A stretch of 64,000 nucleotides of DNA from Bacillota bacterium (GCA_052034085.1 JBPOJA010000026.1:414-64413); one strand, 5' to 3'. Numbered from the stretch's first letter, positions 2,647 to 45,032 are shown. A program made the numbers and translations. Notes: generated by a model not told the origin, from the letters alone.

Positions 2647-2652
2647 TCAGCA

Positions 2653-3855: not shown

Positions 3856-4049
3856 TTTATAATATTGGTTATTGTTTTGAGTAGAGCGGATTCTTCGATT
3901 TGTTTTGGGCACAGCTTCGCCCTCCGGGCCCCTGGCCCGGCTTTTTTCGTGTCCCCCATGACGCACACGAGACTTGCGTCACTTTGACACTTGCTATGAC
4001 ATCCCGGATTTGGCAACGCGCCTGGCGACGATTGCGAAAAACGGGAATT

Positions 4050-7766: not shown

Positions 7767-7782
7767 TCCCTTTTCTACACGC

Positions 7783-9033: not shown

Positions 9034-9062
9034 ACCTTCTCTAGGTTAAACTAATAAGAGCA

Positions 9063-10379: not shown

Positions 10380-10396
10380 ATTATTTCTCCTTTCTC

Positions 10397-10927: not shown

Positions 10928-10950
10928 AAATTTTCACCACCTTTGTTTTT

Positions 10951-10989
10951 ATTATGCACATGGGAAGATTATCTCCCCATGTGCATAAT
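10951..10989 (-). promoter_or_regulatory. Intra-operon stem-loop after the TRAP binding-protein gene
   Basis: ATTATGCACATGGG-N11-CCCATGTGCATAAT, a 14-bp perfect stem in the 73-nt dctP-dctQ spacer. Confidence 0.5.
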
Positions 10990-11000
10990 AATTGGATCCT

Positions 11001-12056: not shown

Positions 12057-12127
12057 TTGTTCTCCTCCTTTTTATTTAGAGTACAATTATCAGCTTCTTT
12101 TTTAAAAGCTGTTGCGAATAAATCCAA

Positions 12128-13288: not shown

Positions 13289-13318
13289 AATCTTTCTCCC
13301 ATTCGGCTGAAATATGCA

Positions 13319-14593: not shown

Positions 14594-14639
14594 GTTACCC
14601 CTCCTGTATTAAAAATTTAAAATAACTGATGCCTTTGCG

Positions 14640-16016
14640 TTAATAAGAAATCTTGCTTGTATTGCACCATATACCCATGCGCTCTGCCTCTTTTATCAGG
14701 TCTTCCCTGAAATCGGGATGTGCTATGTTGATTAAGAGTTCGGTTCTTTCCCATGTTGATTTTCCTTTGAAATTGGCCGTGCCGTATTCGGTTACCAGAT
14801 TATGTATGGCTGCTCTTGGCACCGTCACGATTGACCCTTCCGGCAGTCTGGGAACAATCAGGGACTCTTTGCTTCCGTCTTTTTTCGCCCTTGTGGAAGG
14901 CAGGCACAGGAAGCTTTGTCCGCCTTTTGACTTGAAAGCGCCCATAACGAAGTCCAATTGTCCTCCGTTGCCGCCAATATGCTGCCATACGGCGGATTCT
15001 GAATTGACTTGACAGAAAAGATCGATTTGCAGGCAGCTGTTGATTGAAACCACTTTGTCATTTTCTGCTATCACACCCAAATCATTGACCCATTCCACCG
15101 GGGCACAATGACAGATCGGATTTCCGTCGATGAAATCATAAAGCTCCTGGGAACCCTGTGAAAAGGTGTACACCATCTGACCTTTCATTGTATTTTTATT
15201 GCCTGTAATTTTGCCTTCCTTGTAGAGATGCAAATATGCATCAACGAACATTTCCGAATGCACACTTAAATCACCTATATCCGAATGCGCAATCATGCTG
15301 CCCACATAATTTGGTATTCCGCCTATTCCAAGCTGTAATGTGCTCCCGCTTTCTATCCTGTTGACAATTTGTCCCGCTATTGCCTTGTCAACCTCATTTG
15401 CATCTTTGGCCGTAATAATAGGCATATCTACATTGCTGCCTTCTACGACATAATCCACCTGGCCAATGTTAATTGTGGTTTTTAATCCCATGGCCTGTGG
15501 TTGCTTTTCATTGACTTCCACTATTACTGTTTTTGCCTTTTCCAGAATCCCCCAGTATTCAGCCACCTGAGGTCCCAGGTTGAAGTTTCCCCATTTGTCC
15601 ATGGGTCCAACCTGCAACATGGCAACATCTATGTCGCCTACATTCTCGGCCCAGAGCTTGGTGTTTTCCCTGAACTGCACCGGTATGTACCAGCAGCATC
15701 CATTTTTATTCATCTGCCTGTCCAAACCGCTGAAATGAGTGCTTAAATATTTGAAATGCTGCGACCCCGGGTCGGCTTCAAGAATTGCGGGGGGATCGGG
15801 ATATGCCCAGATAGTCGTGCAGACTTTTACATCCCGCAACTCTTCTGTCCTTTTGGCCAGGGCTTTGTCCAAATCAACAACCAGACCGTTAAACAGGCCA
15901 TAGTGAATACGATCACCCGATTTGATGACTTTTACCGCTTCATCTGCGGAAACACATTTTTTTCTGTATTCCGCCTCAATCCCGGAAAATTTACTGATAT
16001 TGCTTACTCTGTTCAT
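14640..16016 (-). CDS. Acetyl-CoA hydrolase/transferase family CoA-transferase (Cat2/AbfT/butyryl-CoA:acetate type)
   Basis: 458 aa. It shows the family-typical segments LQLGIGGIPN, SEMF and GGQLDF. Confidence 0.85.
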   Translation of the reverse strand: MNRVSNISKFSGIEAEYRKKCVSADEAVKVIKSGDRIHYGLFNGLVVDLDKALAKRTEELRDVKVCTTIWAYPDPPAILEADPGSQHFKYLSTHFSGLDRQMNKNGCCWYIPVQFRENTKLWAENVGDIDVAMLQVGPMDKWGNFNLGPQVAEYWGILEKAKTVIVEVNEKQPQAMGLKTTINIGQVDYVVEGSNVDMPIITAKDANEVDKAIAGQIVNRIESGSTLQLGIGGIPNYVGSMIAHSDIGDLSVHSEMFVDAYLHLYKEGKITGNKNTMKGQMVYTFSQGSQELYDFIDGNPICHCAPVEWVNDLGVIAENDKVVSINSCLQIDLFCQVNSESAVWQHIGGNGGQLDFVMGAFKSKGGQSFLCLPSTRAKKDGSKESLIVPRLPEGSIVTVPRAAIHNLVTEYGTANFKGKSTWERTELLINIAHPDFREDLIKEAERMGIWCNTSKISY

Positions 16017-16036
16017 TTTGCTTCCTCCTAATTGGA

Positions 16037-17221
16037 CTAATCATACAAAGCTTCCAGTATGACTGCAGTTCCCATTCCGCCGCCTGCGCACAGGGTTGCA
16101 AGTCCATACTTGTTGCCGCGCCTTCTCATTTCATAAAGCAGAGCTATCATTATCCTTGTGCCGGTTGCTCCGACCGGATGCCCCAAAGAAATTCCGCCGC
16201 CATTTACGTTGGTAATCTCCCTGTTTAGCCCAAGAGCTTTTTCACAGCCTATATACTGGGCGGCAAATGCTTCATTGACCTCTACCAGTTCCAGGTCTTC
16301 CAGTTTCAGTCCGGCTTTTCCCAAAGCCTTTTCAGTTGCACTGACGGGACCAAGCCCCATTATTTCCGGTTCGATGCCCGTGGTAGCAACAGATACGATT
16401 CTTGCCAATATGGGAACGCCAAGTTCCCTTGCCTTGTCCTCTGCCAGTAAAATCACACCGGAAGCGGCATCATTCATTCCGGATGCATTTCCTGCGGTAA
16501 CGGTTCCGTCATCCTTGAATGCCGGCTTCAGTTTCGCCAGGCTTTCTAACGTAACATCCCGTTTTGGATATTCATCCGTGTCATAAACCACATCACCTTT
16601 ACGGCCTTTTACGGTAACCGGGACAATTTCTTCTTTAAATTTGCCCGCATCCTGGGCTGCCACAGCTCTCTGCTGTGAGAGAAGCGCATACTCGTCCTGT
16701 TCCTCTCTGGAAATGCTGAATTTTTCCGCGATGTTTTCTGCGGTTATTCCCATACCCGGCCCGATACCGAGATTAGTCAGAGAATCCCACATGGAGTCCC
16801 TCAGTTCCATGTGACCGAACTTCTGTCCGTATCTGGCCTTAAATGCCATGTGCGGGGCTGTACTCATGCTGTCAGCCCCTCCCGCCATAATGCAGTCGGC
16901 CTCTCCTGCCCTTATCTGATAAAATCCCAGCTGTACGGAAGACATGGAAGATGTGCAGTTTCTGTGAATGGTGATGCCGGGAACGCTGGTCGGCAATCCC
17001 GCTTTTACCAGGGCCACTCTTGCCAGGTTGTTTTCCATGTAAGTCCTTTGATAGTTGCAACCCCAGATAACATCATCTATTATGGCAGGATTTATTCCAG
17101 CCCTTTCAACCAGAGATGACATTACCGGTATAGACAAATCCAGCGAAGTAATGTTCATAAACTGCCCGCCCATAGTTCCTATAGGTGTTCTGGCTGCCGA
17201 AACAATAACTACATTTCTCAC
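16037..17221 (-). CDS. Acetyl-CoA C-acetyltransferase (thiolase II)
   Basis: 394 aa. The motifs are NRNCTSSM (active-site Cys), NVNGGGISLGHPVGATG and CAGGGMG. Confidence 0.9.
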   Translation of the reverse strand: MRNVVIVSAARTPIGTMGGQFMNITSLDLSIPVMSSLVERAGINPAIIDDVIWGCNYQRTYMENNLARVALVKAGLPTSVPGITIHRNCTSSMSSVQLGFYQIRAGEADCIMAGGADSMSTAPHMAFKARYGQKFGHMELRDSMWDSLTNLGIGPGMGITAENIAEKFSISREEQDEYALLSQQRAVAAQDAGKFKEEIVPVTVKGRKGDVVYDTDEYPKRDVTLESLAKLKPAFKDDGTVTAGNASGMNDAASGVILLAEDKARELGVPILARIVSVATTGIEPEIMGLGPVSATEKALGKAGLKLEDLELVEVNEAFAAQYIGCEKALGLNREITNVNGGGISLGHPVGATGTRIMIALLYEMRRRGNKYGLATLCAGGGMGTAVILEALYD

Positions 17222-17254
17222 TTTTCTTCCCTCCTGATTTGATTCACCTTTATT

Positions 17255-18022
17255 TTATTCACCTTTATAAACCGGTTTTCTCTTTTCCACAAAAGCGCTC
17301 ATGCCTTCTTTTTGATCTTTGGTGTTGAAAAGTCCGGCCCAGTTGCTGCCTTCTATTTCCACGGCTTTTTTAACATCCGCTTCCAGCAGGCCTTCCCTTA
17401 TTGTCTTTTTTGCAATCTTCTGTGCAATGGTGGCTCCTATGGCCAGCTTTTCCGCCCAATTCATGGCATCCTCAAAGCAGGCTCCTTTTGCGCTGACTTT
17501 GTTTACAAGACCTGCTTTTTGCGCATCCTCTGCGCTGATTATGGTGCCGAGCAGAACCAGTTCCATTGCCTTGGCTTCTCCTGCAATTCGCGCCGCTCTG
17601 GCGGTTCCCCCCGCCCCGGGCATTATGCCCAGTGTTATTTCGGGAAAGCCCAATTTGGCGTCTTCATCGGCAATCCTCATATCGCAGGCCAAAGCCAGCT
17701 CAAATCCTCCGCCCAGTGCATATCCTTCAATTGCTGCTATGGTTGGAAATTCGAGATCTTCAATCTTGTTAAAAGTTTCTGAGAAGGCGAAGGCTTTGGC
17801 TTCCTCTTCATTAAAATCAAGCATGCTTTTGATATCTGCGCCCGCTGCAAAGTTTTTTTGACTGTGAATGACCAGGACCTTGACGGTTTCATCATTTTTT
17901 ATGCGCTCGATTGCCTCATCCAGTTCATCCACAAGCTCCCTGTTAAGAGCATTGTAAGCCTCCGGCCTTTGTATGCTGAGCACTGCAATGTTATTTTCGT
18001 TTCTGATGTTGATATATGACAT
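17255..18022 (-). CDS. Enoyl-CoA hydratase (crotonase family)
   Basis: 255 aa. It contains FAAGADI, GYALGGGFELALACD and PEITLGIMPGAGGT. Confidence 0.9.
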   Translation of the reverse strand: MSYINIRNENNIAVLSIQRPEAYNALNRELVDELDEAIERIKNDETVKVLVIHSQKNFAAGADIKSMLDFNEEEAKAFAFSETFNKIEDLEFPTIAAIEGYALGGGFELALACDMRIADEDAKLGFPEITLGIMPGAGGTARAARIAGEAKAMELVLLGTIISAEDAQKAGLVNKVSAKGACFEDAMNWAEKLAIGATIAQKIAKKTIREGLLEADVKKAVEIEGSNWAGLFNTKDQKEGMSAFVEKRKPVYKGE

Positions 18023-18036
18023 CTGTTTCCCCTCAA

Positions 18037-18900
18037 TTAATACTCATAGAAGCCTTTTCCGGTTTTCCTTCCATACTCGCCTCTGGCATACATTTCTGTG
18101 AGGCAGGCTGCAGGCCTGTCTTCAGGTTTTTCAGTCATCCTGAATTTTTCCATATAAACGTTATACTCCAGATCTATCCCTGTCATATCCAGAAGTTCAA
18201 GAGGTCCCATAGGATGACCCAGTCCGCCCTTTACTGCCTTGTCTATGTCTTCCACCGACGCGATTTCCATATCCACAAGATAGCAGGCCTCTCTTGTGAG
18301 AGCGCTGAAAATCCTGTTAACAATGAAGCCATAAATTTCCTTTTCAACCAGAACCGGCGTTTTGCCTATAGCCTTTGTAAATTCATAAACCGTGTTTACG
18401 GTTTCTTCAGATGAATGAGGCCCTTTTACAACTTCAACTATCTTCATTACCAAAGCCGGATTAAAAAAGTGCATATTACATACATTTTCAGGTCTTCTCA
18501 CTACGTCACAGAATCTTGAACTTACTATGTAGGAACTGTTGCTTGCGTAAATAGCATGTTCCGGCGCAAATTTGTCGGCTTCTTTCAGAACTTTTCTCTT
18601 GATTTCCAAAACATCTGCGACTGTTTCCACTATGATGTCGGCATTTTTACATGCCTCTTCAAGGCTTGTGGTGAAAGTGAGCCTGCCTTTGATTTCATCT
18701 GTTTCCGCTTGAGAAAACTTCTCTTTCGCTACTGCCTTTTCAAACCACCCGTCTGCATATTTTTGCGCCTTGTCCACTGTTTCCTGCCTTCTTGAATAAC
18801 AGACGGTTTCAAAACCATTTATGGCTATTTGCATCGCAATCTGATTTCCCATCAGACCTGCTCCCAATACTGCTGCTTTCTTAATCTCCATATTTTGCAC
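18037..18900 (-). CDS. 3-hydroxyacyl-CoA (3-hydroxybutyryl-CoA) dehydrogenase
   Basis: 287 aa. It has the NAD-binding motif VLGAGLMGNQIA and the signatures HFFNP and GFIVNR. Confidence 0.9.
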   Translation of the reverse strand: MQNMEIKKAAVLGAGLMGNQIAMQIAINGFETVCYSRRQETVDKAQKYADGWFEKAVAKEKFSQAETDEIKGRLTFTTSLEEACKNADIIVETVADVLEIKRKVLKEADKFAPEHAIYASNSSYIVSSRFCDVVRRPENVCNMHFFNPALVMKIVEVVKGPHSSEETVNTVYEFTKAIGKTPVLVEKEIYGFIVNRIFSALTREACYLVDMEIASVEDIDKAVKGGLGHPMGPLELLDMTGIDLEYNVYMEKFRMTEKPEDRPAACLTEMYARGEYGRKTGKGFYEY

Positions 18901-18923
18901 CCTTTCTCCTTTTTTAAATAATG

Positions 18924-19694
18924 CTAATTATCCATCTCTTTAGCATATATCGCTGCGCCTAACGCACCCATTGTCTGTGGGCTTTCCAACCTTACTATGT
19001 CGTAACCTGTTTCCGTTTCCAACGCTTTTATTACACTTTCGTTTAAAGCCACACCCCCCGACATTACAATCATGGGGGTTAACCCGATGCGATTGATAAG
19101 ACCTGCAACTCTTTGAGCTATCGATTTATGAGCTCCCAAAGCTACGTCTTCGATTTTCTTTCCTGCCGCCAGCTGGGAAATCATCTCAGATTCAGCAAAA
19201 ACGGTACAGGTGCTGCTGATGGTTACTCCATCCTTGCCTCTTTCCGCCATATCGGACAGCCCGTCAATGGTTGTATCCAAAACCCTGCCCATGACCTCAA
19301 GGAATCTGCCTGTGCCGGCTGCACATTTCTCGTTCATGACGAAATTTTTAACATTGCCGTTTTCATCTATCGATATGACTTTTGCATCCTGGCCTCCTAT
19401 GTCGATAATGGTCCTGGCTTCCGGAACAGTTTTGATTACTCCTTTTGCGTGGCAGCTTATTTCGGTAATCTGCTTGTCTGCCCCTTCAAAAGTCATACGT
19501 CCATAACCTGTGACCACGGTCTTTTTTATATCGTCGCGCTGAATGCCTGCCATTTTAAGTGCTTCATCTATCACTTTCTGAGGGCCTCTGCTACCTGTTC
19601 CTATATTGATTACCGCCTGCCCGGCAATATTTCCATCTTTGTCCAAAATTACTGCTTTAGAGGACGACGAGCCTATATCCAGTCCCAGATACAT
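18924..19694 (-). CDS. 2-hydroxyacyl-CoA dehydratase activase (BcrAD/BadFG ATPase, HgdC/HadI-like)
   Basis: 256 aa. It contains LGLDIGSSSSKAV, DIGGQD and the cluster-ligand context NEKCAAGTGRFLE. Confidence 0.9.
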   Translation of the reverse strand: MYLGLDIGSSSSKAVILDKDGNIAGQAVINIGTGSRGPQKVIDEALKMAGIQRDDIKKTVVTGYGRMTFEGADKQITEISCHAKGVIKTVPEARTIIDIGGQDAKVISIDENGNVKNFVMNEKCAAGTGRFLEVMGRVLDTTIDGLSDMAERGKDGVTISSTCTVFAESEMISQLAAGKKIEDVALGAHKSIAQRVAGLINRIGLTPMIVMSGGVALNESVIKALETETGYDIVRLESPQTMGALGAAIYAKEMDN

Positions 19695-19719
19695 ATAGTT
19701 TCTCCTTTTGTAAATTATT

Positions 19720-20847
19720 TTAGAGTATTTCGCTGAAAGTTTGGATTCTTGTTCTTAATTGCTCAACAGAATCCATCTGCTGTTCAATTTCTATGTATAG
19801 TGCCGGTACACCTGCTTCTTCCAGCTCTTTTTTTATCACCGGATAATCAAACTCTTCCGGATCACAAAACTTGAGCTGGCAATATACAATACCATCCGCA
19901 TTGAATTGTTTCTTGAGGTCAATCAGCATCTTCCCCCTGGTTTTTTCCTTATCGTACAGGAAGGGGCAGCCGTCCTGCCGTGCCACCCTTTCAGCCATTC
20001 TTTCAAAAACATCACCTTCTTGGGGGACTCTGACCCGGAACTGTCTCGACTCCTGCGCAAGGTCATCGGCAACTATAACGAGATTGTTTTCTGAAAAGAG
20101 ATTGAGAAATTCTTCGGGTTCCGCCAGAAGCCCTGAAATGATAATCCTCTTATAGGTGTTTTCTTTCCGGGGTATTTCTTTAAGCCCCTCCAGCAGGAGC
20201 TTCATATTCTCTACATATTCTGCTTTATCCATGAAATATGCCGCTTTGATGATTAAGTGCCTTGTGGATGCATCAAATATTTCAGGATAATCTCCGGCTG
20301 CTGCGACAAATTCTCTCATCAGGCTTCTGTATTCCTCATAGAGTGCATAGCTTTTTTCAAGAGCCTCGTCTGTAACGGTCACACCCAGGACTTTTTCCAG
20401 CTCTCTCTTAACACGGGCAAACTCCTCTCTCATAAAAATTTTCCCCGCAGAGGTTTTTCTGTTTTGCGAATAAACCACGGGGATGATATTTAAATGAGGG
20501 ACTGCCACTTTCCAGTTTTCTATCGTGCATTTCAGAGTGTCACAGAAAGCGCTTACAAGCACTGCAGACAGTTTGTCGTAAACACCTTTAAGGGCCTGGT
20601 GGGTGTTTGCCTTTATTACTGAACAGCAAAAAACCTGGTAATACCTGTCGCTGAGATTTCCAACCTGGGGACCTCCCCACATGCCTATGGGCAGTGCTCC
20701 TGCTGCGTAAACCAGCTCATCCGGCGAATAAATAGGAAAGCAGCCAACAGCTTTTTTTCCGGTCTTCTGAATTGCGAGTTCCACCGATCTTGCGGGATGC
20801 CTGGCAATTTCCTTAAATTCTTCTATTACTTTGTTAACATCTGTCAT
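19720..20847 (-). CDS. 2-hydroxyacyl-CoA dehydratase beta subunit (HgdB/HadC-like)
   Basis: 375 aa. It overlaps the alpha-subunit gene by 4 nt, and its size and sequence are typical of the HgdB/HadC family. Confidence 0.8.
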   Translation of the reverse strand: MTDVNKVIEEFKEIARHPARSVELAIQKTGKKAVGCFPIYSPDELVYAAGALPIGMWGGPQVGNLSDRYYQVFCCSVIKANTHQALKGVYDKLSAVLVSAFCDTLKCTIENWKVAVPHLNIIPVVYSQNRKTSAGKIFMREEFARVKRELEKVLGVTVTDEALEKSYALYEEYRSLMREFVAAAGDYPEIFDASTRHLIIKAAYFMDKAEYVENMKLLLEGLKEIPRKENTYKRIIISGLLAEPEEFLNLFSENNLVIVADDLAQESRQFRVRVPQEGDVFERMAERVARQDGCPFLYDKEKTRGKMLIDLKKQFNADGIVYCQLKFCDPEEFDYPVIKKELEEAGVPALYIEIEQQMDSVEQLRTRIQTFSEIL

Positions 20848-22070
20848 TGTGAATTGCCTCCCTTTGCTTTGCGCTCTTCCATCATTTCCACCAGTGCCTG
20901 CACTCTGGTTTCATATTGGGCCTGTGAGAATGCCCTGGGGTCCGTCTGATCGCCGTCAAAGATTACGGAAGGTACTCCGGTTGCCTGCTCTACCCTTCTT
21001 TGAACCTCAAACTGCCTGAAATCCATAAGCTTGCAGCTTCTGTTGGAGTGGTAGATTATCCCGTCAAGCTCAAAATTTCTAACCAGATTGACAATATTGT
21101 CAACGCCGAAATCAAGATTTCTGTTTACATAATTTGAGCTGTAAGCTCTTGCCATCCCATCCAGGTCATTGTCATCGTAAACTATGTACCAGGAATCGGG
21201 ATAAGTGGAAGTCACCATATTGATTCCGTAGTTTTTCAATGTCTTGTAAGTACTGCTCAAATATGGCCAGCAGGCTATGCCGTCCCACATTACCCTGTAC
21301 TTTTCTTCCCCGTCCTTCCATGGGCCCAGACCCTTTTCTGCCTTGTCTTTCAGCTCATCATGCCACATTTTGAAGAGTTCCCTTCCTTCTTCCGTGCCTC
21401 TTGCGCACACAATCGTGGCCATGTAGTTAAATAAGTCAAAGCCATTTAAGGGCGAAGGCTTGGCTCTTGCAAGGAGAGAAGCTTTTTTCCACCATATCGA
21501 TGTATCTCTCGATATGCTCATTACTTCGGAAAATTTGTCATAATCAAACTTTTTACCGGTGATGTTTTCAACCTGTCTGATAGCATCTAAAAGCTGTGCT
21601 TTCATATACTTTGTGTTTTGCTCATTAATTTCATACTGGTGATTGAAAGGCATGTCGAATACTATCATGGGAATATTGAGCTGCTTGGCAATGTTTTCAT
21701 ACCATTTGATGACAGTGTTGCAGATATTGTTGCAGCAAAAAATCAGATCCGGGCGCGGCATATTTCCGGCATCGCTATGCATGATGTCCAGATAGCCCAT
21801 ATTGACTCTTGCATATGAACAGATGTCAACGGAATATCCCTTTCCTTCTGCCTGGTTTATGAATTCCTGAGCCTGTTTTCTGGCCCCTATTGCGGCTGCA
21901 TGGTTTTCAGGATACATGGTATAGATATCTGCTGTTGTGAGAATTTCCTGAGGGGAGATAGATGTTGCCCAGGCCACAAGCTTTCCTTCTTCTTTCGCTG
22001 TGAAAGCCTCTTTGTAATGCCTGTCCAGCATTTCATTCAACAGCTGCTTTGACGTTTTGACTGTGTCCAC
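20844..22070 (-). CDS. 2-hydroxyacyl-CoA dehydratase alpha subunit (HgdA/HadB-like)
   Basis: I chose the GTG start at 22070 (VDTVKTSKQLL...) because GGGAGGG lies 5-6 nt upstream. The ORF-track TTG at 22100 has no RBS. The sequence is family-typical (AWATSISPQEIL, ICSYARVN). Confidence 0.8.
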   Translation of the reverse strand: MDTVKTSKQLLNEMLDRHYKEAFTAKEEGKLVAWATSISPQEILTTADIYTMYPENHAAAIGARKQAQEFINQAEGKGYSVDICSYARVNMGYLDIMHSDAGNMPRPDLIFCCNNICNTVIKWYENIAKQLNIPMIVFDMPFNHQYEINEQNTKYMKAQLLDAIRQVENITGKKFDYDKFSEVMSISRDTSIWWKKASLLARAKPSPLNGFDLFNYMATIVCARGTEEGRELFKMWHDELKDKAEKGLGPWKDGEEKYRVMWDGIACWPYLSSTYKTLKNYGINMVTSTYPDSWYIVYDDNDLDGMARAYSSNYVNRNLDFGVDNIVNLVRNFELDGIIYHSNRSCKLMDFRQFEVQRRVEQATGVPSVIFDGDQTDPRAFSQAQYETRVQALVEMMEERKAKGGNSQ

Positions 22071-22161
22071 TTTTACCCTCCCGGATACGACGATAGGCAA
22101 ATGCGAATATTTTTTATGTTATTGTTGCTGTTACTACTATGTCTACTATGTTTTCTATCGT

Positions 22162-22178
22162 CGCAAAAGTTGTGCCAA
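22162..22178 (-). promoter_or_regulatory. Sigma-54 (-24/-12) promoter
   Basis: The minus strand reads TTGGCAC-AACTT-TTGCG, matching the consensus TGGCAC-N5-TTGC exactly. It lies about 90 nt upstream of the dehydratase start and downstream of a sigma-54 EBP gene. Confidence 0.75.
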
Positions 22179-22240
22179 ATGAAGGTTCAGCTAAGAATGT
22201 GTTGAAAATGTGTATTCTTTAATCTTTTCTGCATTAAAAC

Positions 22241-22276
22241 AGGCGGGTTCGATGCGTTTGCGCATCATATCCGCCT
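22241..22276 (-). terminator. Nested hairpin after the EBP gene (possible terminator and/or EBP site)
   Basis: AGGCGG...GATGCG-TTTG-CGCATC...CCGCCT. It sits 37 nt after the stop at 22313, and the trailing T-run is short. Confidence 0.45.
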
Positions 22277-22312
22277 AATTTCTGTGTTCTTTTGGCATTT
22301 ATGCATCAATTG

Positions 22313-23695
22313 CTAAATGCCATACTTTTTCAGTTTTCTTATTATGGTCGATTGATCTATTTTCAATGCTTTTGACATTTTGCGACTGCTGCCATACTGG
22401 GATTTTGCCCTTTCCAGAATAAACTTTTCATAATCATCAACTAATTCTTTAAATGATTTGCTTTCACCCGGACTGCAGGGATCTTCCCTTTTTGTGTCCC
22501 TGAACCATGGCAGGTCTGATATTTGAAGATATTCATTATTGCTGACCACCACCATGTTTTCAATAACGTTTTTCAGCTGTCTGATATTTCCTTTCCAGCT
22601 GTTCATTTTCAACTCTTCAAGCACCTCGTACGTGAGTCTTTTGTTCTGCCCGTACTGCTTATTGAACTGATTCAGAAAACCAAGCGCCAAGGGCATAATT
22701 TCTTCTTTTCTTTCCCTTAGCGGCGGGATGTCTATTGTTATAACATTTAACCTGTAGTACAGATCTTCGCGGAAATCGCCGGAAGCCACCATTTCTCTCA
22801 GATCCTTGTTTGAAGCAGCAATAACACGTATGTCCACCGGAATATATTCTGTTGATCCCACACGGTTAATGGTCCTTGATTCCAATGCCCTCAGTAATTT
22901 TACCTGCAGGTTTAAACTCATCTCTCCTATTTCATCCAGTAAGAGCGTTCCGCCGTTTGCGGCTTCAATTAAACCTTCTTTGCCTCCTTTCGCAGCTCCG
23001 GTAAAAGCACCTTCGGCATAACCGAAAAGTTCAGACTCCAGCAATGATTCCGGAATGGAACCACAGTTTACGGCAATGAAAGGTTTGTTCCTTCTCAGCA
23101 TGCTGTTGTCATGGATAAATCGGGCCAACACATCTTTGCCCACCCCGGACTCTCCAGAAATCAGTATCGTTGTGTTAAAATCTCCCACCTTTTTGGCAAG
23201 AGAAAAAATTTCTTCCATAACCCTGTTTATTACTACAATTCCATGACTTTCTCCGCTTTTCTCAGCATTTAGCTGGTCAAAATATATCCTTTCCATTTTC
23301 CTGGCATCGTCAAGTTCTTCTTTGAGAGCATATATTTCAGACATGTCTCTTGTATTGACAACTACTCTTTTTATAGTTCCGTCTTCCTGGAAAATGGGAG
23401 TTCCTGTAACAATGATATTTTTGCCATGCCTGGTTGTGTGGTGCATGGTAACCGGCCTCCCCTGTTCAATAGCCAGCAGAACAACTGAGTTTTTCATCCA
23501 GACAGGATTAATGAGCTCACGAACATTGTGACCTAAAAGCTCATCCTTTTGTATATTAGTATTTCTTACGTAAGATTGATTAACAAGGAGAACTTTTCCA
23601 TCCCCGTCAGTGACCATTATTCCATCAAAAGAACCTTCTATAATTTCCTGTAGTTCTTCCAGGCTTTTATCTTTATTTTTGTCTGGCCCAAACAT
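22313..23695 (-). CDS. Sigma-54-dependent transcriptional activator (PAS - AAA+ - HTH)
   Basis: An N-terminal PAS-like domain is followed by GESGVGKD (Walker A), GAFTGA and ELFGY (sigma-54 contact), then a C-terminal Fis-type HTH (SSRKMSKALKIDQSTIIRKLKKYG). The start is taken at the internal ATG at 23695; 23725 is also possible. Confidence 0.9.
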   Translation of the reverse strand: MFGPDKNKDKSLEELQEIIEGSFDGIMVTDGDGKVLLVNQSYVRNTNIQKDELLGHNVRELINPVWMKNSVVLLAIEQGRPVTMHHTTRHGKNIIVTGTPIFQEDGTIKRVVVNTRDMSEIYALKEELDDARKMERIYFDQLNAEKSGESHGIVVINRVMEEIFSLAKKVGDFNTTILISGESGVGKDVLARFIHDNSMLRRNKPFIAVNCGSIPESLLESELFGYAEGAFTGAAKGGKEGLIEAANGGTLLLDEIGEMSLNLQVKLLRALESRTINRVGSTEYIPVDIRVIAASNKDLREMVASGDFREDLYYRLNVITIDIPPLRERKEEIMPLALGFLNQFNKQYGQNKRLTYEVLEELKMNSWKGNIRQLKNVIENMVVVSNNEYLQISDLPWFRDTKREDPCSPGESKSFKELVDDYEKFILERAKSQYGSSRKMSKALKIDQSTIIRKLKKYGI

Positions 23696-23820
23696 GATGT
23701 CACGATATCCTTTCCTGCAAACCACACCACAAGTTTATTATGGTACAGTTTACTATAATAAAAAAATTCATTCAACACATGTCATAAGAATAGGGTATTA
23801 CGCAGAGATGACGGAGAGCA

Positions 23821-24018
23821 TTATTCTCCGTCTGCAAGCCTGAGAATTTTCACTGCATCTCCGTCGCCCAGAATGTGGCCGGCGTATTCGTTTTTTCGAA
23901 GCTGGTTTCCGTTAACCCACACAGCAGCCCTTGTGCTATAATCTCTATATCCCAGGAGCTGCTGTATGGTTGTTTCGTTTTCCAGCGATATTTCTTCTTT
24001 GTTTACTTTAATTCGGAT
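23821..24018 (-). pseudogene. ThiS/MoaD-like beta-grasp ORF with no canonical start codon and no C-terminal Gly-Gly
   Basis: Own codon-by-codon translation: IRIKVNKEEISLENETTIQQLLGYRDYSTRAAVWVNGNQLRKNEYAGHILGDGDAVKILRLADGE*. It aligns by eye with ThiS (TIQDLL..., DGDxIEIvxxvGG). The frame is open back to the bfr TAG but contains no ATG/GTG/TTG. Confidence 0.4.
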
Positions 24019-24105
24019 ATCCGGGGTTCCATGCGCTCTTGCGCACTCCGGAGTTCCATGCGCTTTGGGCTTTTGGTTCTTGCGCGCTCCTGAGCCTCGA
24101 AGGCA

Positions 24106-24640: not shown

Positions 24641-24859
24641 GTTGGGTTCTGTGGGCCGGCTTGGGTTTTGTGGGCCGGCTTGGGTTTGTGGGCCGGTCCG
24701 GCCTGGGTTCTTTGGGTCGGCTAATTTTGGGCCGGTCCGGCCTGGGTTCTTTGGGTCGGCTTATTTTGGGCCGGTCCGGCTTGGGTTTTCGGGCCGGCTA
24801 ATCTTGTGGGCCGGTCCGGCCTGGGTTTGCGGGCCGGCTTATTTTGGGCCGGTCCGGCT
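24641..24859. repeat. GC-rich minisatellite, ~39-bp unit (two ~19-20 bp half units), about 5.5 copies
   Basis: The unit GGGCCGGTCCGGCCTGGGTTCTTTGGGTCGGCTAATTTT is repeated head to tail. Each unit contains the palindrome GGCCGG-T-CCGGCC. The array fills the spacer from the MATE stop to the bfr upstream region. Confidence 0.85.
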
Positions 24860-26471
24860 ATTCTCTATATGATAGGTTATCACTGCCGGCCCAACTATGC
24901 AATGATAATATATACCAGATCAGCATGGAAAGTCCCCGCAGCGCCGCCGAAAGGCTGATGCCCAGCCAGAGTCCGTTCATGCCCATAATGAGGTGGAGCC
25001 GCCAGCAGAGAATCGGCCTTAAAAGGTTTGCCCCTATGCTACAGATGCTTGGGGGCAGGGTTTTTCCAAGACCACGGAAGGCCCCCGAGCAGGTTCCTTC
25101 AAAAGCCAGAAACACCAGGCAAATGGCCATTATTTTCAGGTAAACAGCTCCCATGCCGATGATTTCGGGCGGCTCCCTGAGAAATAGCGAAAAGAAGAAT
25201 CCCCCAAAAGCCACCAGCAGGAAAGTTACAAATAGCTCCCATATCAGGAGCGCCGCCGTGGCGATTTTGAAGGATCTTCGGATTCTGTTCCACTTTTTTG
25301 CCCCGTAATTTTGCCCTACGAAAGCGGTCATGGCGGATGAAAATCCTATGCCAACCATCCAGGAGAGGGATTCAATCTGGCTGCCTACCCGGTTGATGGC
25401 AACTGCCATTTCTCCGTACCAGGCTGCCGCCATTGCCGTGACCACCATGGACAGGATGGTGAAGGCGGCGCTTTCCAATGCCAAAGGCGTGCCCCACCAA
25501 AGGATGATTTTGCTGCGTCTTTTCCGCAGTCCCAGCAGACTTTTATGCAAGCCCGGCAGGTCTTTCTCCGAGCTTTGTGGTGTGAAATGGCGGGCGTAGG
25601 CTCTTCCGCCGTTTTCCGCTTGACGACCGCATGCTCTTCCGCCGCCGAAAATTCTGAAGCCTGAGAAAGGCCTTGTAGCCGGATGCTTTATAAAAATTAT
25701 GAACTGCACAAACACCACTATTTCCGCCAGGGAAGTGGCTACTGCGGCTCCGGTCACCCCCCAGCCGAAGTACAGAATCATGAGAGGATCCAGAACCATA
25801 TTAACCAGAAGCCCCACAGCATTTGCCTTGAAGCTGATTTTGGAATTACCTGCACCATTGAAAATGCCTGTTATCGATGCGGAAACATAAAAGAAAGGCA
25901 CGGCCGCCCCTATTATGCGCAGGTACCGAACTGAATTCTGATAAACGGTGGGTTCCTGAACTTTCAGCAGGCTTATGAGGGGTTCGGGAAATATGATGAA
26001 AATAGCTCCGCAAACTATCCCGAGAATCAGGGCTATCCGCACCGAATCCTGGGCATAGTCCCTGGCTTTGCCGGGCTTTCGCTTGCCCAGATTTTGCGCG
26101 GTTCCGATTTCGGCTCCTGTCCGCCCAAGTAGCATGGGAGCAGCGGACAGCCACATATAGAGGCCCGCCAGCCCGCTGGCGGCTACCGCCATAACCGCAT
26201 AATCCGTCCGCCCCAGCCAGAACATATCCGTCAGGTTGTAGGCCATCTGCATAAACTGAGTCCCCATGATGGGCAGTGCCACCATGAGGAGTTTTTTGAG
26301 TATGCCGCCTTCAGTGAGATTGCCGGCATCTGAACTTCCTGATTTGTGACCGCCGGCATCTTTTGCCTTTGCTTCGAGGCTACCCGCATCTTTTGCCTCG
26401 GCTTCGAGGCTACCGGCATCTTTTGCTTTAGCTTCAAGGCCGCCGGCTTGAATTTTTTCTGATGATTCCAT
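24858..26471 (-). CDS. MATE family efflux transporter with repeat-containing N-terminal extension
   Basis: 537 aa and 12-TM-like. The segment ILKKLLMVALPIMGTQFMQMAYNLTDMFWLGR is typical of a MATE N-terminus. It is preceded by 3 x 10-aa repeats (LEAKAKDAGS). A basic linker is inserted between the two halves. Confidence 0.8.
   Translation of the reverse strand: MESSEKIQAGGLEAKAKDAGSLEAEAKDAGSLEAKAKDAGGHKSGSSDAGNLTEGGILKKLLMVALPIMGTQFMQMAYNLTDMFWLGRTDYAVMAVAASGLAGLYMWLSAAPMLLGRTGAEIGTAQNLGKRKPGKARDYAQDSVRIALILGIVCGAIFIIFPEPLISLLKVQEPTVYQNSVRYLRIIGAAVPFFYVSASITGIFNGAGNSKISFKANAVGLLVNMVLDPLMILYFGWGVTGAAVATSLAEIVVFVQFIIFIKHPATRPFSGFRIFGGGRACGRQAENGGRAYARHFTPQSSEKDLPGLHKSLLGLRKRRSKIILWWGTPLALESAAFTILSMVVTAMAAAWYGEMAVAINRVGSQIESLSWMVGIGFSSAMTAFVGQNYGAKKWNRIRRSFKIATAALLIWELFVTFLLVAFGGFFFSLFLREPPEIIGMGAVYLKIMAICLVFLAFEGTCSGAFRGLGKTLPPSICSIGANLLRPILCWRLHLIMGMNGLWLGISLSAALRGLSMLIWYILSLHSWAGSDNLSYRE
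26352..26441 (-). repeat. 3 x 30-bp in-frame tandem repeat inside the MATE 5' end
   Basis: CC(G)GCATCTTTTGCCTnnGCTTCGAGGCTA occurs three times and encodes LEAKAKDAGS / LEAEAKDAGS / LEAKAKDAGG. Confidence 0.85.
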
Positions 26472-26877
26472 GCCTATGATTATAGATGAAAATTAGAGCG
26501 TTTTGGGGATTTTGAGCAAATTTTCGACTTATCATTGATTTTTGGCCCCTCGAGTTCGGATTGAATTCGGGCATCTAGAATATTTGCTCAGAAATCTGAA
26601 AGTAAGTGGCAAAATTTCAGATATCCTGAAATTTTGCTTACATCATGCCCGGCCGAGAGCTCCTGCCGGGAGCCTGTGTTGAGAGCTTCTGCCTGGAGTC
26701 CCGGCCTGAAGCCTATGTCGGAAGCTTTTACCTGGAGTCTATGTCGGGAGCTTCTGGCCGGAGCATTTCAAGAAGCCCGACGGCCGCTTTTTGTCGGCCG
26801 CCGGGTGCACCGCCTCAGATGCTGTGCTGTAATCCCGAAGAACAGGTAAATAAAAGCCGGTTCTTCGGGATTTCAAT

Positions 26878-27068
26878 AGATTTTGAGCTAAAACCGGCGA
26901 AGTGCTATGCCGGAATGCAGATATTAGGACGGTTGTGAGCAAAAACACGAGAAGTGCATAGAAAAACTTGGGTGCAAGTCCGAAAATCCATAGCACTTCG
27001 CTCTTTTTTGCTCATTCCGCTCCTGTTTTCCCGATTTCTGGCTAGCACTTCTCCTCATTTTGCTCAAA
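26878..27068. repeat. Four-module 52-bp-pitch repeat element, copy A
   Basis: Four modules of the form GAGCnAAAAnnnGAGAAGTGCTAG are present. The GAAGTGC core is at 26899 and 26951 (direct). The GCACTTC core is at 26993 and 27045 (inverted). Modules 1/4 and 2/3 are mutually complementary. Confidence 0.85.
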
Positions 27069-27076
27069 AGAAGAGC

Positions 27077-27144
27077 AGAAATTTTTTGCACAAAAGTCAC
27101 AGAAATTTTTTGCACAAAAGTCACAGAAATTTTTTTGTGCAAAG
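27077..27144. repeat. 24-bp tandem repeat (2.8 copies), last copy partly inverted
   Basis: AGAAATTTTTTGCACAAAAGTCAC occurs twice, followed by AGAAATTTTTTTGTGCAAAG. TTGCACAAAA and TTTTGTGCAA are complementary. The array lies about 110 nt upstream of the -10 of the peptidase gene. Confidence 0.8.
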
Positions 27145-27296: not shown

Positions 27297-29561
27297 TTGT
27301 CCCGAAATAAAAAACTTCTCAGTATTGCACTAATTCTTATTCTGATTTTGGGTCTTCTGTCCGCCTGCGGCAAAGGGGGCGGCGATGAGAACGGCACCGA
27401 AGAGCCGGGAACTGAGACCACAATCTACACAAGTTTTCTCGAAGCAGTTGATGTAAATTTTGCATATGAAGTTGGGGTTGAGCTGGCGGAAAATCCCGAA
27501 TACCACGATTCTCCCATGGGCACCAGGACCGCCGGCAGCGATGCGGAGCACAAGGCAGCTGATTATCTGGCCAACCTGATGGAATCCATTGGCCTGCAGG
27601 ATGTGGAAAAAGTGGGAGTCAAAGTGGACAGATGGCAGTTTAACGGCGCCAGCCTGGTGCTCGAGAGCGATGGCGATGGTGCAGGTGGTGGCAACAGCGA
27701 AAAGAAAGAGATTCTCCTCCACTCATACGCTACCGAGGCAACTCCCAAAGAAGGCATTGATGCGGAAATCATCTATGTGGGCGAAGGCACTATGGCAGAC
27801 TACGAGGGTCTTGATGTGAAAGGCAAAATCGTTCTATGCGATGTGAACCAGCGTGACAACTGGTGGGTTACTATGCCCATGCTGGAGGCCTGGCATCAGG
27901 GGGCGGCAGCTTTGCTAGCCGCTTCGACCGAAGGTTTTTCCGAAATCAGCGATGAGGCCTACAATGCCAATGACATCTGCGGACCCACAGGCATTCCTTG
28001 CGTCAGCATAACTCCCAAGGATTCCGCCTATCTCCAAAGCCTGATGGAAGAAGGTCCGGTCCGCGGCAATCTGAAAGTGGACAACATCGTTGAACCCGGA
28101 GGTACCTCTTACAACATTGTGGGCAAAATCCCCGGAAAATCATCTGAGGAAATGGTAATCTTCGGCGCCCACTACGATATGTATTTTACCAGTTTTCAGG
28201 ATGACTCAGTTGCTGTGGGCTCGGCACTGGCCATTGCAAAGGCCATGATAGATTCGGGCTACACTCCCGAGAGAGACATCGTTTTCTGCATTCACGGCTC
28301 CGAAGAATGGGGCGCCAGCAACTCCCAGTTTGACTGGACCACCGGAGCCTGGCGCATGATCAACGAGGCGCACCCGGAATGGGCGGGAAAAACTCTGGCT
28401 TTCATCAATTTCGAGCTTCCTGCCTTTGAGTTTGATGACTACACCATGGTTTATTCCGCACCGGAAATGTACACCATGATAGACCGTTTCGTAAATGAAG
28501 AACCTTCACCGGGGCCAGTTGACTGCTTCCCTGACGGGGTTCTCACCGACGGTTTTCAGACTTACACTTATTCCGACGACTTTTCATATTACGTAGCGGG
28601 GGTTCCTTCCACTGTGAACGGCTTTTTGCTGGATAAGGATATGGAAGACGTTTTCCCCTTCTACCGGGAGATTTACCATTCCAATTTTGACACCAAGGAA
28701 ACCTGCAACTTCAATGTGTTGCGCTTTACCGTGGAGTTTTATGGAGCTTTCGGCATTTACATAGACTCCACCCCTGCCCTGCAGCTGGATTACACGGCTC
28801 ACTATGACAGACTGATGGATGCCATAGACGAGGAAACGGCTCTAGCTTACGGTGTGGATTATGACGGCTATATTGCAGCTGCCAAGGCTTACAAGGAAGC
28901 GGCAGAGGATGCTTTCGGAGCTGTTGATGCCCTGAACAAGGCGTATTTTGCTTTGCTCAGCAATGGCAACGGTACTGGGGCAGGTTCGGGAAATGGGGAG
29001 ACCGCGGACAATTCAGGCGATCTTGAGAGCGATCTGGAAAGCATATGGGCCGCCGCCCGCGATATGAACAAGAAAAACCTGGCCCTCTTTAAGCTTACCC
29101 AGGACAAGATTCTGGGCCTCATGTACGAACGGCCAATAGTTCCCCACGAGGCGGCCCAGGAAAACCTCATGCTTATGCAGGAAATCATTGCTTTGCTGAA
29201 AGATGGCGATGTGCAGACTGCGGTGGATGAGTATGCCTGGCAGATTAATAATGTGGAAGAATGGTATGCCATGTATTTCAGCCCAGAAGTAACCAAAATA
29301 GGCTACGATATGTTCTACAGCCCCGACAACAAGCACAATCTCTTCTGGGGCTCCGGCAAGGAATATCTGCCGGCTGAAGTTGAGGAAGCCACCCGCAGTT
29401 TAGTGGCCAGATACGATGAGCAAGGCGGAAAATTCGCGAAGGAAATTGCTGTGTATGAGGCCTCCATCGAAGCCCAAAAGATTGAATACAAGAAAAGGGT
29501 CAGCCAGGAAATAGCGGACCTGTACACTCTGACCCAGGCCCTGAAAGGAATTACATATTAG
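27297..29561 (+). CDS. M28-family metallopeptidase lipoprotein with PA domain and long helical C-terminal domain
   Basis: 754 aa with a TTG start after AAAGGAAGTGA. It has a lipobox (LLSACG), a PA-like segment (GKIVLCDV) and M28 motifs (GAHYD, HGSEEWGASNS). Confidence 0.7.
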   Translation: MSRNKKLLSIALILILILGLLSACGKGGGDENGTEEPGTETTIYTSFLEAVDVNFAYEVGVELAENPEYHDSPMGTRTAGSDAEHKAADYLANLMESIGLQDVEKVGVKVDRWQFNGASLVLESDGDGAGGGNSEKKEILLHSYATEATPKEGIDAEIIYVGEGTMADYEGLDVKGKIVLCDVNQRDNWWVTMPMLEAWHQGAAALLAASTEGFSEISDEAYNANDICGPTGIPCVSITPKDSAYLQSLMEEGPVRGNLKVDNIVEPGGTSYNIVGKIPGKSSEEMVIFGAHYDMYFTSFQDDSVAVGSALAIAKAMIDSGYTPERDIVFCIHGSEEWGASNSQFDWTTGAWRMINEAHPEWAGKTLAFINFELPAFEFDDYTMVYSAPEMYTMIDRFVNEEPSPGPVDCFPDGVLTDGFQTYTYSDDFSYYVAGVPSTVNGFLLDKDMEDVFPFYREIYHSNFDTKETCNFNVLRFTVEFYGAFGIYIDSTPALQLDYTAHYDRLMDAIDEETALAYGVDYDGYIAAAKAYKEAAEDAFGAVDALNKAYFALLSNGNGTGAGSGNGETADNSGDLESDLESIWAAARDMNKKNLALFKLTQDKILGLMYERPIVPHEAAQENLMLMQEIIALLKDGDVQTAVDEYAWQINNVEEWYAMYFSPEVTKIGYDMFYSPDNKHNLFWGSGKEYLPAEVEEATRSLVARYDEQGGKFAKEIAVYEASIEAQKIEYKKRVSQEIADLYTLTQALKGITY

Positions 29562-29602: not shown

Positions 29603-29646
29603 ACAACCGGGCCGGTCCTAAAAGGCGGCCCGGTTGTTTCTTTTAT
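29603..29646 (+). terminator. Rho-independent terminator of the peptidase gene
   Basis: CAACCGGGCCG-N12-CGGCCCGGTTG followed by TTTCTTTTAT. Confidence 0.7.
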
Positions 29647-29657: not shown

Positions 29658-29845
29658 GGATTTTGAGTTAAAACAGGAGAAGTGCTAGGCGCGAAAGTGG
29701 ATATGAGGCTGGCAGTGAGCGAAAACACGAGAAGTGCTAGGAAAAATTGGGGATAAACCCTGAAATCCCTAGCACTTCACATTTTTTTGCACATTTCAGC
29801 CTGGATTTCTTATTTCGGGCTAGCACTTCTCCTGTTTTTGCACCC
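29658..29845. repeat. Four-module 52-bp-pitch repeat element, copy B
   Basis: The GAAGTGC core is at 29679 and 29731, and the GCACTTC core is at 29772 and 29823. The architecture matches copy A. Confidence 0.85.
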
Positions 29846-29900
29846 ACAAACAGCTCTATCTTGTGTTTCCAATCAGTTGTCTCTGCTTCGCAGCATCAGG

Positions 29901-30974: not shown

Positions 30975-31057
30975 CCGGCACGGAGCCGGGATGTCTTTTT
31001 ACAGCCGGCACGGAGCCGGGATGTCTTTTTACAGCCGGCACGGGGCCGGGACATCTG
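30975..31057. repeat. 30-bp tandem repeat, 2.8 copies
   Basis: CCGGCACGGAGCCGGGATGTCTTTTTACAG occurs twice plus a partial copy. Each unit holds the small hairpin CCGGC-ACGGA-GCCGG. The array lies in the ltaE upstream region. Confidence 0.85.
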
Positions 31058-31094: not shown

Positions 31095-31133
31095 TCACGT
31101 TTCAATCGATGTCGCTGAAATCGGACCTTTACC

Positions 31134-31207
31134 TCAGGACATCTTTGTGCTCAGGTACTAATCTCCGGGCATCTTTGTACTCAGGCCTTAATCTCCGGGC
31201 ATCTGAG
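31134..31207. repeat. Second 30-bp tandem repeat, about 2.5 copies, overlapping a gene 3' end
   Basis: TCAGGTACTAATCTCCGGGCATCTTTGTAC / TCAGGCCTTAATCTCCGGGCATCTGAG, plus a partial copy at 31134. The TGA stop of the 301-aa ORF lies inside the last unit. Confidence 0.75.
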
Positions 31208-36487: not shown

Positions 36488-36666
36488 TATGACGGTGGTA
36501 TGTATGACAGGGATGACAGTGGTGACAGTGGGACAGACCTTTTGACATGACAGACATGTATGACAGTGGGACAGACCTTTTGTCATATGACAGTGGGACA
36601 GACCTTTTGACATATGTCAAAAGGTCTGTCCCACTGTCATCATTTTGTCATCTGTCTCATTGTCTT
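36488..36666. repeat. GACAG palindromic element cluster, locus 1 (T/A variant)
   Basis: There are three direct copies of GACAGTGGGACAGACCTTTTG(A/T)CA plus one inverted copy. The last pair forms a 52-bp perfect palindrome at 36588-36639, centred on CATATG. The cluster is flanked by TGACAG/ATGACAG short repeats and begins about 3 nt after the stop at 36669. Confidence 0.9.
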
Positions 36667-38717: not shown

Positions 38718-38859
38718 AACTTAATTCAGTGTTAGTTGCAACCATATATTTCCATTATTGTTTGTCAATACCATTTATTATGCCAAAGTCAGCTTTTTCT
38801 GACCTCTGAACTTAACTGAAACCTTTCAGAAGTGGCCTCTTTGCAAAAGAGGCTTCATT

Positions 38860-39052
38860 ATTAAGCGAAAAAGGGAGAAGTGCTATGGAGAATTTGATAA
38901 ATCTGGGAGCGGCTGAGCGAAAAACGGAGAAGTGCTAGAGATTAAGTGGGCTGGCTCTCTATATTCTTTGGCACTTCTATGATTTTTGCTCAAAAACACC
39001 CAAAATCTTAAATTTGCCATAGCACTTCTCTTTTATTTGCTCAAATCCTGCC
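38860..39052. repeat. Four-module 52-bp-pitch repeat element, copy C (module 3 degenerate)
   Basis: The GAAGTGC core is at 38877 and 38929, and the GCACTTC core is at 38971 and 39022. Confidence 0.8.
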
Positions 39053-41978: not shown

Positions 41979-42097
41979 ATATGACAGGGGGACATATGAC
42001 AGGGGGACAGCCCTTTTGACATATGGCATATGACAGGGGCATTCTAACGCCTGATGACAAAAGATGTCAAAAGGGCTGTCCCCCTGTCATCCTGTCA
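41979..42097. repeat. GACAG palindromic element, locus 2 (split arms)
   Basis: GACAGGGGGACAGCCCTTTTGACA at 41998-42021 and its exact inverse at 42065-42088, separated by 43 nt. Flanking ATGACAG/CTGTCAT repeats are present. The element abuts the glyQS TGA. Confidence 0.9.
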
Positions 42098-44947: not shown

Positions 44948-45032
44948 TGATGACAGATGACAGGGGGACAGCCCTTTTGACACATGACAAAAGGGCTGTC
45001 CCCCTGTCATCACCTGTCATCACCTGTCATCA
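44948..45032. repeat. GACAG palindromic element, locus 3
   Basis: TGATGACAGATGACAGGGGGACAGCCCTTTTGACACATGACAAAAGGGCTGTCCCCCTGTCATCACCTGTCATCACCTGTCATCA. It fills the whole era-recO spacer and includes the era TGA. Confidence 0.9.

Follow-up and report, generated by a model that had tools for sequence, protein, structure and literature searches.

Small modular palindromic repeats in the intergenic DNA of a Clostridia-type bacterium and of unrelated anaerobic lineages

Introduction

Few small interspersed repeats have been catalogued from the uncultured anaerobic Firmicutes. The locus analysed here raises the question of what such a repeat is made of and how it came to occupy its sites: three palindromic elements, the copies known in this genome from a scan of the window, lie inside 12.2 kb. 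The window, as the whole stretch is called throughout, comprises 64,000 nucleotides of a Bacillota bacterium (GCA_052034085.1, JBPOJA010000026.1:414-64413). It is core chromosome of an uncultured Clostridia-type bacterium, with the gene run hrcA-grpE-dnaK-dnaJ-prmA followed by phoH-ybeY-cdd-era-recO-glyQS-ppdK, while another stretch carries 2-hydroxyglutaryl-CoA dehydratase and a butyrate-pathway cluster with a sigma-54 activator. Our analysis assigns the elements to a hitherto undescribed family of interspersed repeats that are small, modular and palindromic, a kind of element that is itself well known, and leads us to regard them as probably once mobile.

Architecture of the elements

The three elements measure about 190 bp (189-194 bp), and each contains four 25-bp modules (TGAGCAAAAAnnnGAGAAGTGCTAG), two in forward orientation followed by two in reverse. 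Sequence reading and a module scan placed them as follows.

26880-27068, no strand assigned: copy A, with modules at 26884-26908 (+), 26936-26961 (+), 26990-27014 (-) and 27042-27066 (-)
29660-29848, no strand assigned: copy B, with modules at 29664-29688 (+), 29716-29740 (+), 29769-29793 (-) and 29820-29844 (-)
38857-39050, no strand assigned: copy C, with modules at 38862-38886 (+), 38914-38938 (+), 38968-38992 (-) and 39019-39043 (-)

The GAAGTGC cores and their GCACTTC complements lie exactly where an earlier note on this DNA had put them, at 26899 and 26951 / 26993 and 27045 in copy A, 29679 and 29731 / 29772 and 29823 in copy B, and 38877 and 38929 / 38971 and 39022 in copy C. The strict 52-bp pitch described there holds for copy A, where both same-orientation spacings are 52 bp, and is near-strict in B and C (52 and 51 bp); it is not universal, related elements having two, at least three or four modules, or pitches of 31 and 42 bp. 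The conserved module likewise proved real but slightly longer than the 24 nt first given, its logo spanning 25 bp in two parts: TG-N5-AAA-N3-GnGAAGTGC-TAG, with the last triplet also given as (T/A)(A/C)G. Aligning the 12 modules yields the consensus TGAGCAAAAA-nnn-GAGAAGTGCTAG, clearly bipartite in shape, with GAAGTGC invariant.

This repetition exceeds chance. Allowing up to two mismatches, the 12-mer GAGAAGTGCTAG occurs 10 times in the window, every time within the three elements, against 4.1 +/- 1.7 occurrences in shuffled controls, none of the 100 shuffles reaching 10. With a looser 22-nt module pattern, the window yields exactly 12 modules, none of them outside the elements. Stops interrupt all six frames, so the copies are non-coding. 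The outer modules 1 and 4 form terminal inverted repeats of 27-35 nt that are about 80% complementary, and the inner inverted pairs are spaced 47-48 bp apart in all lineages in which the element was found.

Between copies, the arms are 60-81% identical, and the inter-module spacers are the most divergent part, in keeping with the loose conservation noticed at the outset. Copies A and B share 81% of their left arms and 75% of their right arms, whereas left and right arms inside one copy are only 67-69% alike. It follows that whole elements, with their two ends already distinct, were duplicated; A and B may stem from a local duplication.

Parts of the module also stand by themselves beside copy A, at three places.

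27057-27144, no strand assigned: 24-bp tandem repeat CAGAAATTTTTTGCACAAAAGTCA of about three units, abutting copy A
27134-27144: inverted half-site within the 24-bp repeat region beside copy A
26511-26521, plus strand: isolated 5' half-site GGATTTTGAGCAAAT, similar to the element's outer terminus, 370 bp left of copy A

Each 24-bp unit holds only the 5' half-site of the module (TTTGTGCAAAA, on the minus strand), and the number of units is three in the window and four in two strain contigs (L096 and L097). The tandem, inverted and solitary half-sites together indicate that the two module halves can occur independently.

Genomic setting

All three copies are intergenic, as had been stated, and lie between annotated genes. 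An M28 peptidase gene stands between copies A and B, with a MatE gene on the far side of A and a threonine aldolase gene, convergent with that of the peptidase, on the far side of B; copy C lies between ppdK (PPDK) and a gene for a 308-aa protein, nine unrelated genes separating B from C. The M28 peptidase (27297-29561) has its closest named homologues in Anaerovoracaceae (71% amino acid identity) and Sinanaerobacter (56%), and exact-protein look-ups for PPDK, the 308-aa protein and P0001 returned no record. Among 50 window ORFs compared with Pfam, none encodes a transposase, integrase, RAYT (Y1_Tnp) or Cas protein; three ORFs of at least 110 aa lie outside that scan. At 7065-24100, between the ketopantoate hydroxymethyltransferase and ferritin genes, the window has about 17 kb of genes that the corresponding interval of a syntenic contig (L099, 7903-7925) lacks; they encode a TRAP transporter, an aminotransferase, a CoA-transferase, butyrate-pathway enzymes, 2-hydroxyglutaryl-CoA dehydratase and a sigma-54 activator.

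The GC hairpin described to the left of each copy is present in every case, across gaps of 8-27 bp.

26834-26869, plus strand: GC hairpin with a 10-bp stem, 14 bp left of copy A
29605-29636, plus strand: intrinsic-terminator-like hairpin of the M28 peptidase gene with a T-rich tail, 27 bp left of copy B
38834-38854, plus strand: GC hairpin, 8 bp left of copy C

The targeting of terminators that had been read into this arrangement is not established, a clear gene terminator standing beside copy B only and the gap varying from 8 to 27 bp. Upstream of the first hairpin there is only a doubtful 71-aa ORF lacking a Pfam match, and the hairpin beside copy C is the terminator of neither neighbouring gene, both of which lie on the minus strand.

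Other repeats share these surroundings. Neighbouring spacers hold an unusual wealth of tandem repeats, at 24642-24880 (39 bp, five units), 26353-26447 (30 bp, three units), 30975-31051 (30 bp, 2.6 units) and 31133-31204 (30 bp, 2.4 units). The longest MatE ORF, of 537 aa against 410-455 aa in relatives, is probably over-called, since its 5' extension takes in the repeat at 26353-26447. A second, unrelated intergenic family occurs at 36505-36650, 41990-42091, 44951-45020 and 53613-53686, in the short operon spacers dnaJ-prmA, era-recO and glyQS-ppdK and upstream of a GNAT gene; its members are near-perfect palindromes of ATGACAGGGGGACAGCCCTTTTGACA and its reverse complement with extra TGACAG/CTGTCA half-repeats, and one copy is also present in strain contig L096.

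Searches against known families

The earlier note did not recognise the element as a named repeat, and neither Rfam, nor blastn against phages and plasmids, nor a literature search for sequence strings produced a match. Rfam gave zero matches for the whole window at the gathering threshold and for seven related loci; copy A at E<=10 drew only sub-threshold, generic miRNA or snoRNA hairpin models. Queries with copy B, the element of locus L021 and two 33-nt module consensus sequences against 72,556 plasmids and 50,697 phages returned either no match or chance matches in coding DNA, and no insertion sequence (IS) end matching the module. Four pattern scans of viral contigs gave chance matches only, all without the 5' half-motif, and a full-text literature search with core 11-12-mers found unrelated PCR primers only. 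The 50 scanned window ORFs and the plasmid, phage and viral collections alike gave no IS with matching ends.

Three specific identities were rejected. No module matches CIRCE, the HrcA operator (TTAGCACTC-N9-GAGTGCTAA), within three mismatches; the sole CIRCE match in the window, a perfect one, lies at 58514-58540 upstream of hrcA-grpE-dnaK-dnaJ. A sigma-54 promoter had been suggested by the reverse-strand GCAC...TTGCA and by an enhancer-binding protein encoded at 22313-23725, but inspection shows a spacing of 11-13 instead of 5 and no conservation of GG. A CRISPR mini-array is contradicted by repeats in opposite orientations, two per arm, by "spacers" that are 60-81% conserved and by the lack of cas genes among the scanned window ORFs.

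Related elements in other lineages

A pattern matching the inner inverted pair of all three copies was run on 185,579 species, one genome each, and matched 38 loci, about the chance expectation; 35 of them were chance and three real. Loci L010 and L021 (Oscillospiraceae MAG) hold one forward and one reverse module each and share a repeat of about 198 bp at 89% identity. Locus L012 (Christensenella MAG) has four modules at a 51/52-bp pitch, the contig ending in module 4. In the same contig, the four-module element lies about 90 bp away from an IS66 (tnpA, tnpB, tnpC) at 65-2729, which terminates at GTAACGCCC.

Unit number is polymorphic within a species: L102, 98.5% identical to L010, has one 52-bp unit more at the corresponding locus before its contig ends inside a module, giving at least three modules against two. 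Three contigs in all end inside modules (L012, L096 and L102), as is expected of dispersed repeats. Neighbouring genes differ from locus to locus and encode Bmp, peptidase C26, a permease, VTC/response regulator and polyprenyl synthase. The L010 element (3848-3925) nevertheless lies just downstream of an M28 orthologue (1252-3732; 59% amino acid identity over 710 residues), so that the element adjoins orthologous M28 genes in two distant lineages, the gene beyond being different. Random insertion does not readily predict this adjacency, which counts against the mobile reading.

A sister family of higher GC content came from a scan of metagenomes, where about 53 of 55 matched loci were due to chance, as expected, and contig L039 was found. 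Its module, CGTGCAAGGAAAnnGGCGAAGTGCACGG, is homologous: when the two are anchored on GAAGTGC, its TG, AAA and GnG stand at offsets identical to those of the window module. Conservation of the module as sequence thus extends over lineages of 46-59% GC. Arrays of this type comprise 8 to 14 modules in mixed orientation, with a 124-bp (-,-,+) super-unit as their building block. According to a translated-array search, such arrays give rise to at least 18 distinct spurious ORFs or "proteins", mostly on short contigs; the same kind of search with the low-GC element as query gave no matches. Two array loci that were retrieved (L105 and L106-L112) lie between unrelated housekeeping genes in DNA of 57-59% GC. 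Two features accompany these arrays. In L039, an IS1595-like insertion at 587-1980, with a 370-aa ORF at 739-1851 and terminal inverted repeats CTCTATGTTAAACCACCGTTGACC, sits in the array and is flanked by a duplicated array stretch of about 120 bp. A conserved block, GGGGTGAGCCGCTTCCG.AG.CGGG...CTGTAGGC.AACCCCTC, stands beside the arrays in two unrelated contigs, L039 (about 2480-2587) and L105 (about 10400-10520), and has no Rfam match.

Over all lineages together, modules of the same orientation are spaced at only four distances: 31 bp (11 times), 42 bp (three times) and 51 or 52 bp (seven times). They correspond to about three, four and five helical turns, which fits the proposal that the modules lie on one face of the DNA. 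This helical phasing is suggestive only, since many of the spacings are copies of one another through tandem duplication of the 124-bp super-unit.

Filled and empty sites

Two metagenomic strain contigs (L096 and L097), 98-99% identical to the window, keep every copy that they cover almost unchanged, so within the species the copies are stable. Copy A is unchanged in L097, and the L096 contig ends within its module 4; copy B is present in both, and copy C is identical in L096. Divergence between strains amounts to 0.3-1.0% in the elements, about 1.2% in coding DNA and more than 2% in other intergenic DNA, all from small counts. Elements that evolve no faster than coding DNA between strains could mean a host function.

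The comparison of filled with empty sites, which the earlier note had called for in related strains, did reveal empty sites, in more distant relatives. Four of these relatives encode the flanking M28 peptidase (L099, 81%; L104, 80%; L101, 72%; L100, 69% amino acid identity). The MatE, M28 and threonine aldolase genes are all retained in L099, and the convergent M28/threonine-aldolase pair in L100 and L101; in these three, 54-98 bp separate M28 from the aldolase gene, against 340 bp in the window, and a terminator hairpin of their own stands at the equivalent position. The module pattern was absent from the 46 kb scanned in L099-L101. L104 is a 3.3-kb contig with the M28 gene and a cut upstream gene that ends before any aldolase gene, and reading the stretches on either side of its M28 gene revealed no module. 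The site of copy A is thus covered in L099 and L104, both of which extend to either side of M28 and lack A and B, and L100 and L101 show the B site only, empty. Elsewhere, a relative of the L010 locus (L103, about 73% nucleotide identity) has a plain terminator in the element's place. These filled and empty sites are compared at the between-species level only, the spacers being too diverged for base-by-base alignment, and insertion boundaries are approximate for that reason.

The copies therefore behave as insertions: the corresponding spacers of syntenic relatives lack them, and unrelated lineages have them. This amounts to an intergenic polymorphism with a patchy phylogenetic distribution. 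The target-site duplication that might accompany insertion was not borne out: no copy has a flanking direct repeat, and inspection of all six ends by eye revealed neither duplications nor a common target motif. This absence is weak evidence, given the age of the copies (60-81% identity) and an uncertainty of a few bp in their boundaries.

A composite transposon made of the M28 gene with copies A and B was considered and rejected, the four related contigs having M28 without a flanking element and three of them retaining the convergent threonine-aldolase gene. Downstream of M28, L104 carries different repeats at 3040-3302, namely GGCAAAATTTCAA palindromes and CAACACTACC tandem units, so the spacer downstream of M28 seems to be a recurrent landing place for repeats.

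Folding potential

Modules 1 and 4 and modules 2 and 3 are complementary, as claimed, and each copy is predicted to fold as one long hairpin, with free energies of -77.9 kcal/mol (z -7.4) for A, -90.3 (z -11.1) for B and -83.0 (z -9.3) for C. The three-copy alignment has 90% of its cells paired. The check for compensatory changes in this alignment was positive, with nine pairs against 3.9 +/- 1.4 in shuffles, which indicates that arm complementarity is maintained; the RNAalifold covariation term is +1.35, slightly unfavourable (n=3). The 3-5 nt between the half-motifs are consistently unpaired and differ between left and right arm, and the central loop is not conserved between lineages. Folded singly, a low-GC module reaches only -2.0 to -2.5 kcal/mol, and the high-GC variant forms a 6-bp stem of -7.1 kcal/mol. 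Inside the elements there is no convincing promoter or T-tract terminator. Copy C folds at -83 kcal/mol on the non-transcribed strand and at -67.6 kcal/mol on the transcribed one, which argues against a specific RNA function, the second of the original candidates.

Origin of the elements and alternative readings

With slightly better than even confidence, we read the elements as non-autonomous repeats resembling MITEs, REPINs or BOX, whose modules would be recognition sites for a protein acting in trans and whose unit number subsequently drifted. The building block would be a 51-52-bp unit with a bipartite 25-bp module, two such units and two inverted ones composing the element. As the likeliest mechanism we infer that the modules would serve as sequence-specific sites for a DNA enzyme encoded elsewhere in the genome, transposase-like or domesticated transposase-like, binding several phased sites per end. 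Such an enzyme would once have copied the element into intergenic DNA, after which slippage or unequal recombination between direct units would have altered their number. The complementary arms would give a long hairpin in a transcript or single strand, which may have a secondary role in blocking transcription or stabilising RNA. A bolder version, rather unlikely in our estimation, has the 25-bp module recognised by an architectural or transposase-like protein, uncharacterised and possibly domesticated, that several Clostridia lineages share; module and protein would together be an anaerobe counterpart of REP/RAYT/BIME that would build nucleoprotein arrays beside hairpins; it specifies a non-palindromic bipartite site repeated at whole helical turns (31, 42 and 52 bp).

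Two features of the module, namely its conservation as sequence between 46 and 59% GC rather than as arm complementarity alone and its spacing at about three, four and five turns, would also suit an array owned by the host, in which phased sites for a conserved Clostridial DNA-binding protein, such as a regulator or a nucleoid-associated factor, nucleate on one face of the DNA a wrapped or looped complex affecting neighbours such as the M28 peptidase. The additional 5' half-sites just upstream of the M28 promoter (the 24-bp tandem array and the inverted pair), the adjacency to orthologous M28 genes in two lineages and the low divergence between strains point the same way. We nonetheless hold such an array to be unlikely: the sites are missing from the M28 regions of closer relatives, as a conserved feature of a regulon would not be, convergent 3' ends flank copy B and leave it no promoter to regulate, neighbour genes differ at every locus, and the regular spacing comes largely from duplication of the 124-bp super-unit, so that the observations are not independent. 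Quite unlikely, too, is an element acting at the RNA level, either as a long hairpin in 3' or 5' untranslated regions that blocks transcription in both directions, is processed by RNase III/E or stabilises the mRNA, or as a small RNA family, the complementarity of its arms then being under selection for that role. The very stable folds (z -7 to -11), the 90% of paired cells with their nine compensatory pairs against 3.9, and the position of copies next to terminators or between convergent genes are what it would predict, but it is opposed by the absence of an Rfam match, the covariation term of +1.35 (n=3), the unpaired and arm-specific 3-5 nt between half-motifs, the central loop that varies between lineages, the better fold of copy C on its non-transcribed strand, the lack of a convincing internal promoter or T-tract terminator, and high-GC arrays whose mixed orientation forms no single structure.

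A mobile origin is compatible with both of these alternatives. It is at odds with the idea that the copies are purely local segmental duplications or decaying tandem repeats devoid of mobility or function, in spacers rich in slippage repeats. Their confinement to 12.2 kb, the unrelated tandem repeats that fill neighbouring spacers and the lack of a visible target-site duplication would agree with that idea, which the wider distribution makes very improbable: the same module and four-module 52-bp architecture recur in unrelated MAGs, a homologous module builds the high-GC arrays, copy C is nine unrelated genes away from B, and the Oscillospiraceae MAG holds two dispersed copies.

The family breaks metagenomic assemblies, with three contigs ending in modules, and spawns spurious ORFs, 18 of them in the protein database. 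Unit-number polymorphism between strains that are 98.5% identical makes it a possible strain marker. The constant register of the module across 46-59% GC and the whole-turn spacings appear to point to a specific DNA-binding partner; identifying it would reveal by what means these repeats spread in Clostridia or what use is made of them there.

Comparison with known repeat systems

The elements share with MITEs (PMC10969869, PMC3049150) a length below 500 bp, a non-coding and intergenic nature, terminal inverted repeats, a highly paired predicted structure, several copies per genome and differences in presence or absence between related genomes. They differ in having neither a visible target duplication nor an identified IS with matching ends, although flanking direct repeats fade in old MITE copies (PMC10969869, PMC3049150). 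A MITE, moreover, has one short terminal repeat, whereas each arm here contains two full 25-bp modules at a 52-bp pitch, in variable unit number.

REPINs and BIMEs are REP sequences mobilised by RAYT transposases (PMC3116915, PMC2817692, PMC3733652). Like REPINs, the elements pair short conserved motifs in inverted orientation to give a hairpin, and their high-GC relatives recall BIMEs in the regularly spaced motif arrays of alternating orientation; the extragenic position, often beside terminators, and the maintained complementarity of the arms are common to all. The REP unit, in contrast, is an imperfect palindrome of 20-40 bp, while the low-GC module is not palindromic and folds on itself at only -2 kcal/mol. 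The GTAG/CGTC tag of REP sequences (PMC3733652) is absent from both module logos, which read TGAGC/TGTGC ... GTGCTAG at low GC and CGTGCA ... GTGCACG at high GC. No RAYT occurs among the scanned window ORFs, and the hosts here are anaerobic Clostridia.

The ends of several transposons (Mu, Tn7, Tn402/Tn5053, Tn552 and the IR-DR type of Sleeping Beauty) carry at least two direct transposase sites of about 20-25 bp each, and the two ends are inverted relative to one another. The elements resemble this plan in their two direct modules per arm and inverted arms, and the TG at the start of the outer module gives TG...CA termini. The likeness is architectural only, no transposase, cargo or 5-bp target duplication having been found here.

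Compared by architecture only, BOX of Streptococcus pneumoniae and S. suis (PMC3049150) differs in having three module types (A, B_n and C), of which boxB alone is iterated, whereas a single type in both orientations is used here. BOX appears dormant, with no convincingly assigned transposase, forms a predicted stem-loop and clusters with other repeats (PMC3049150), all of which recalls the elements of the window; both are composite, modular Firmicutes repeats with a variable number of internal modules and partly complementary ends.
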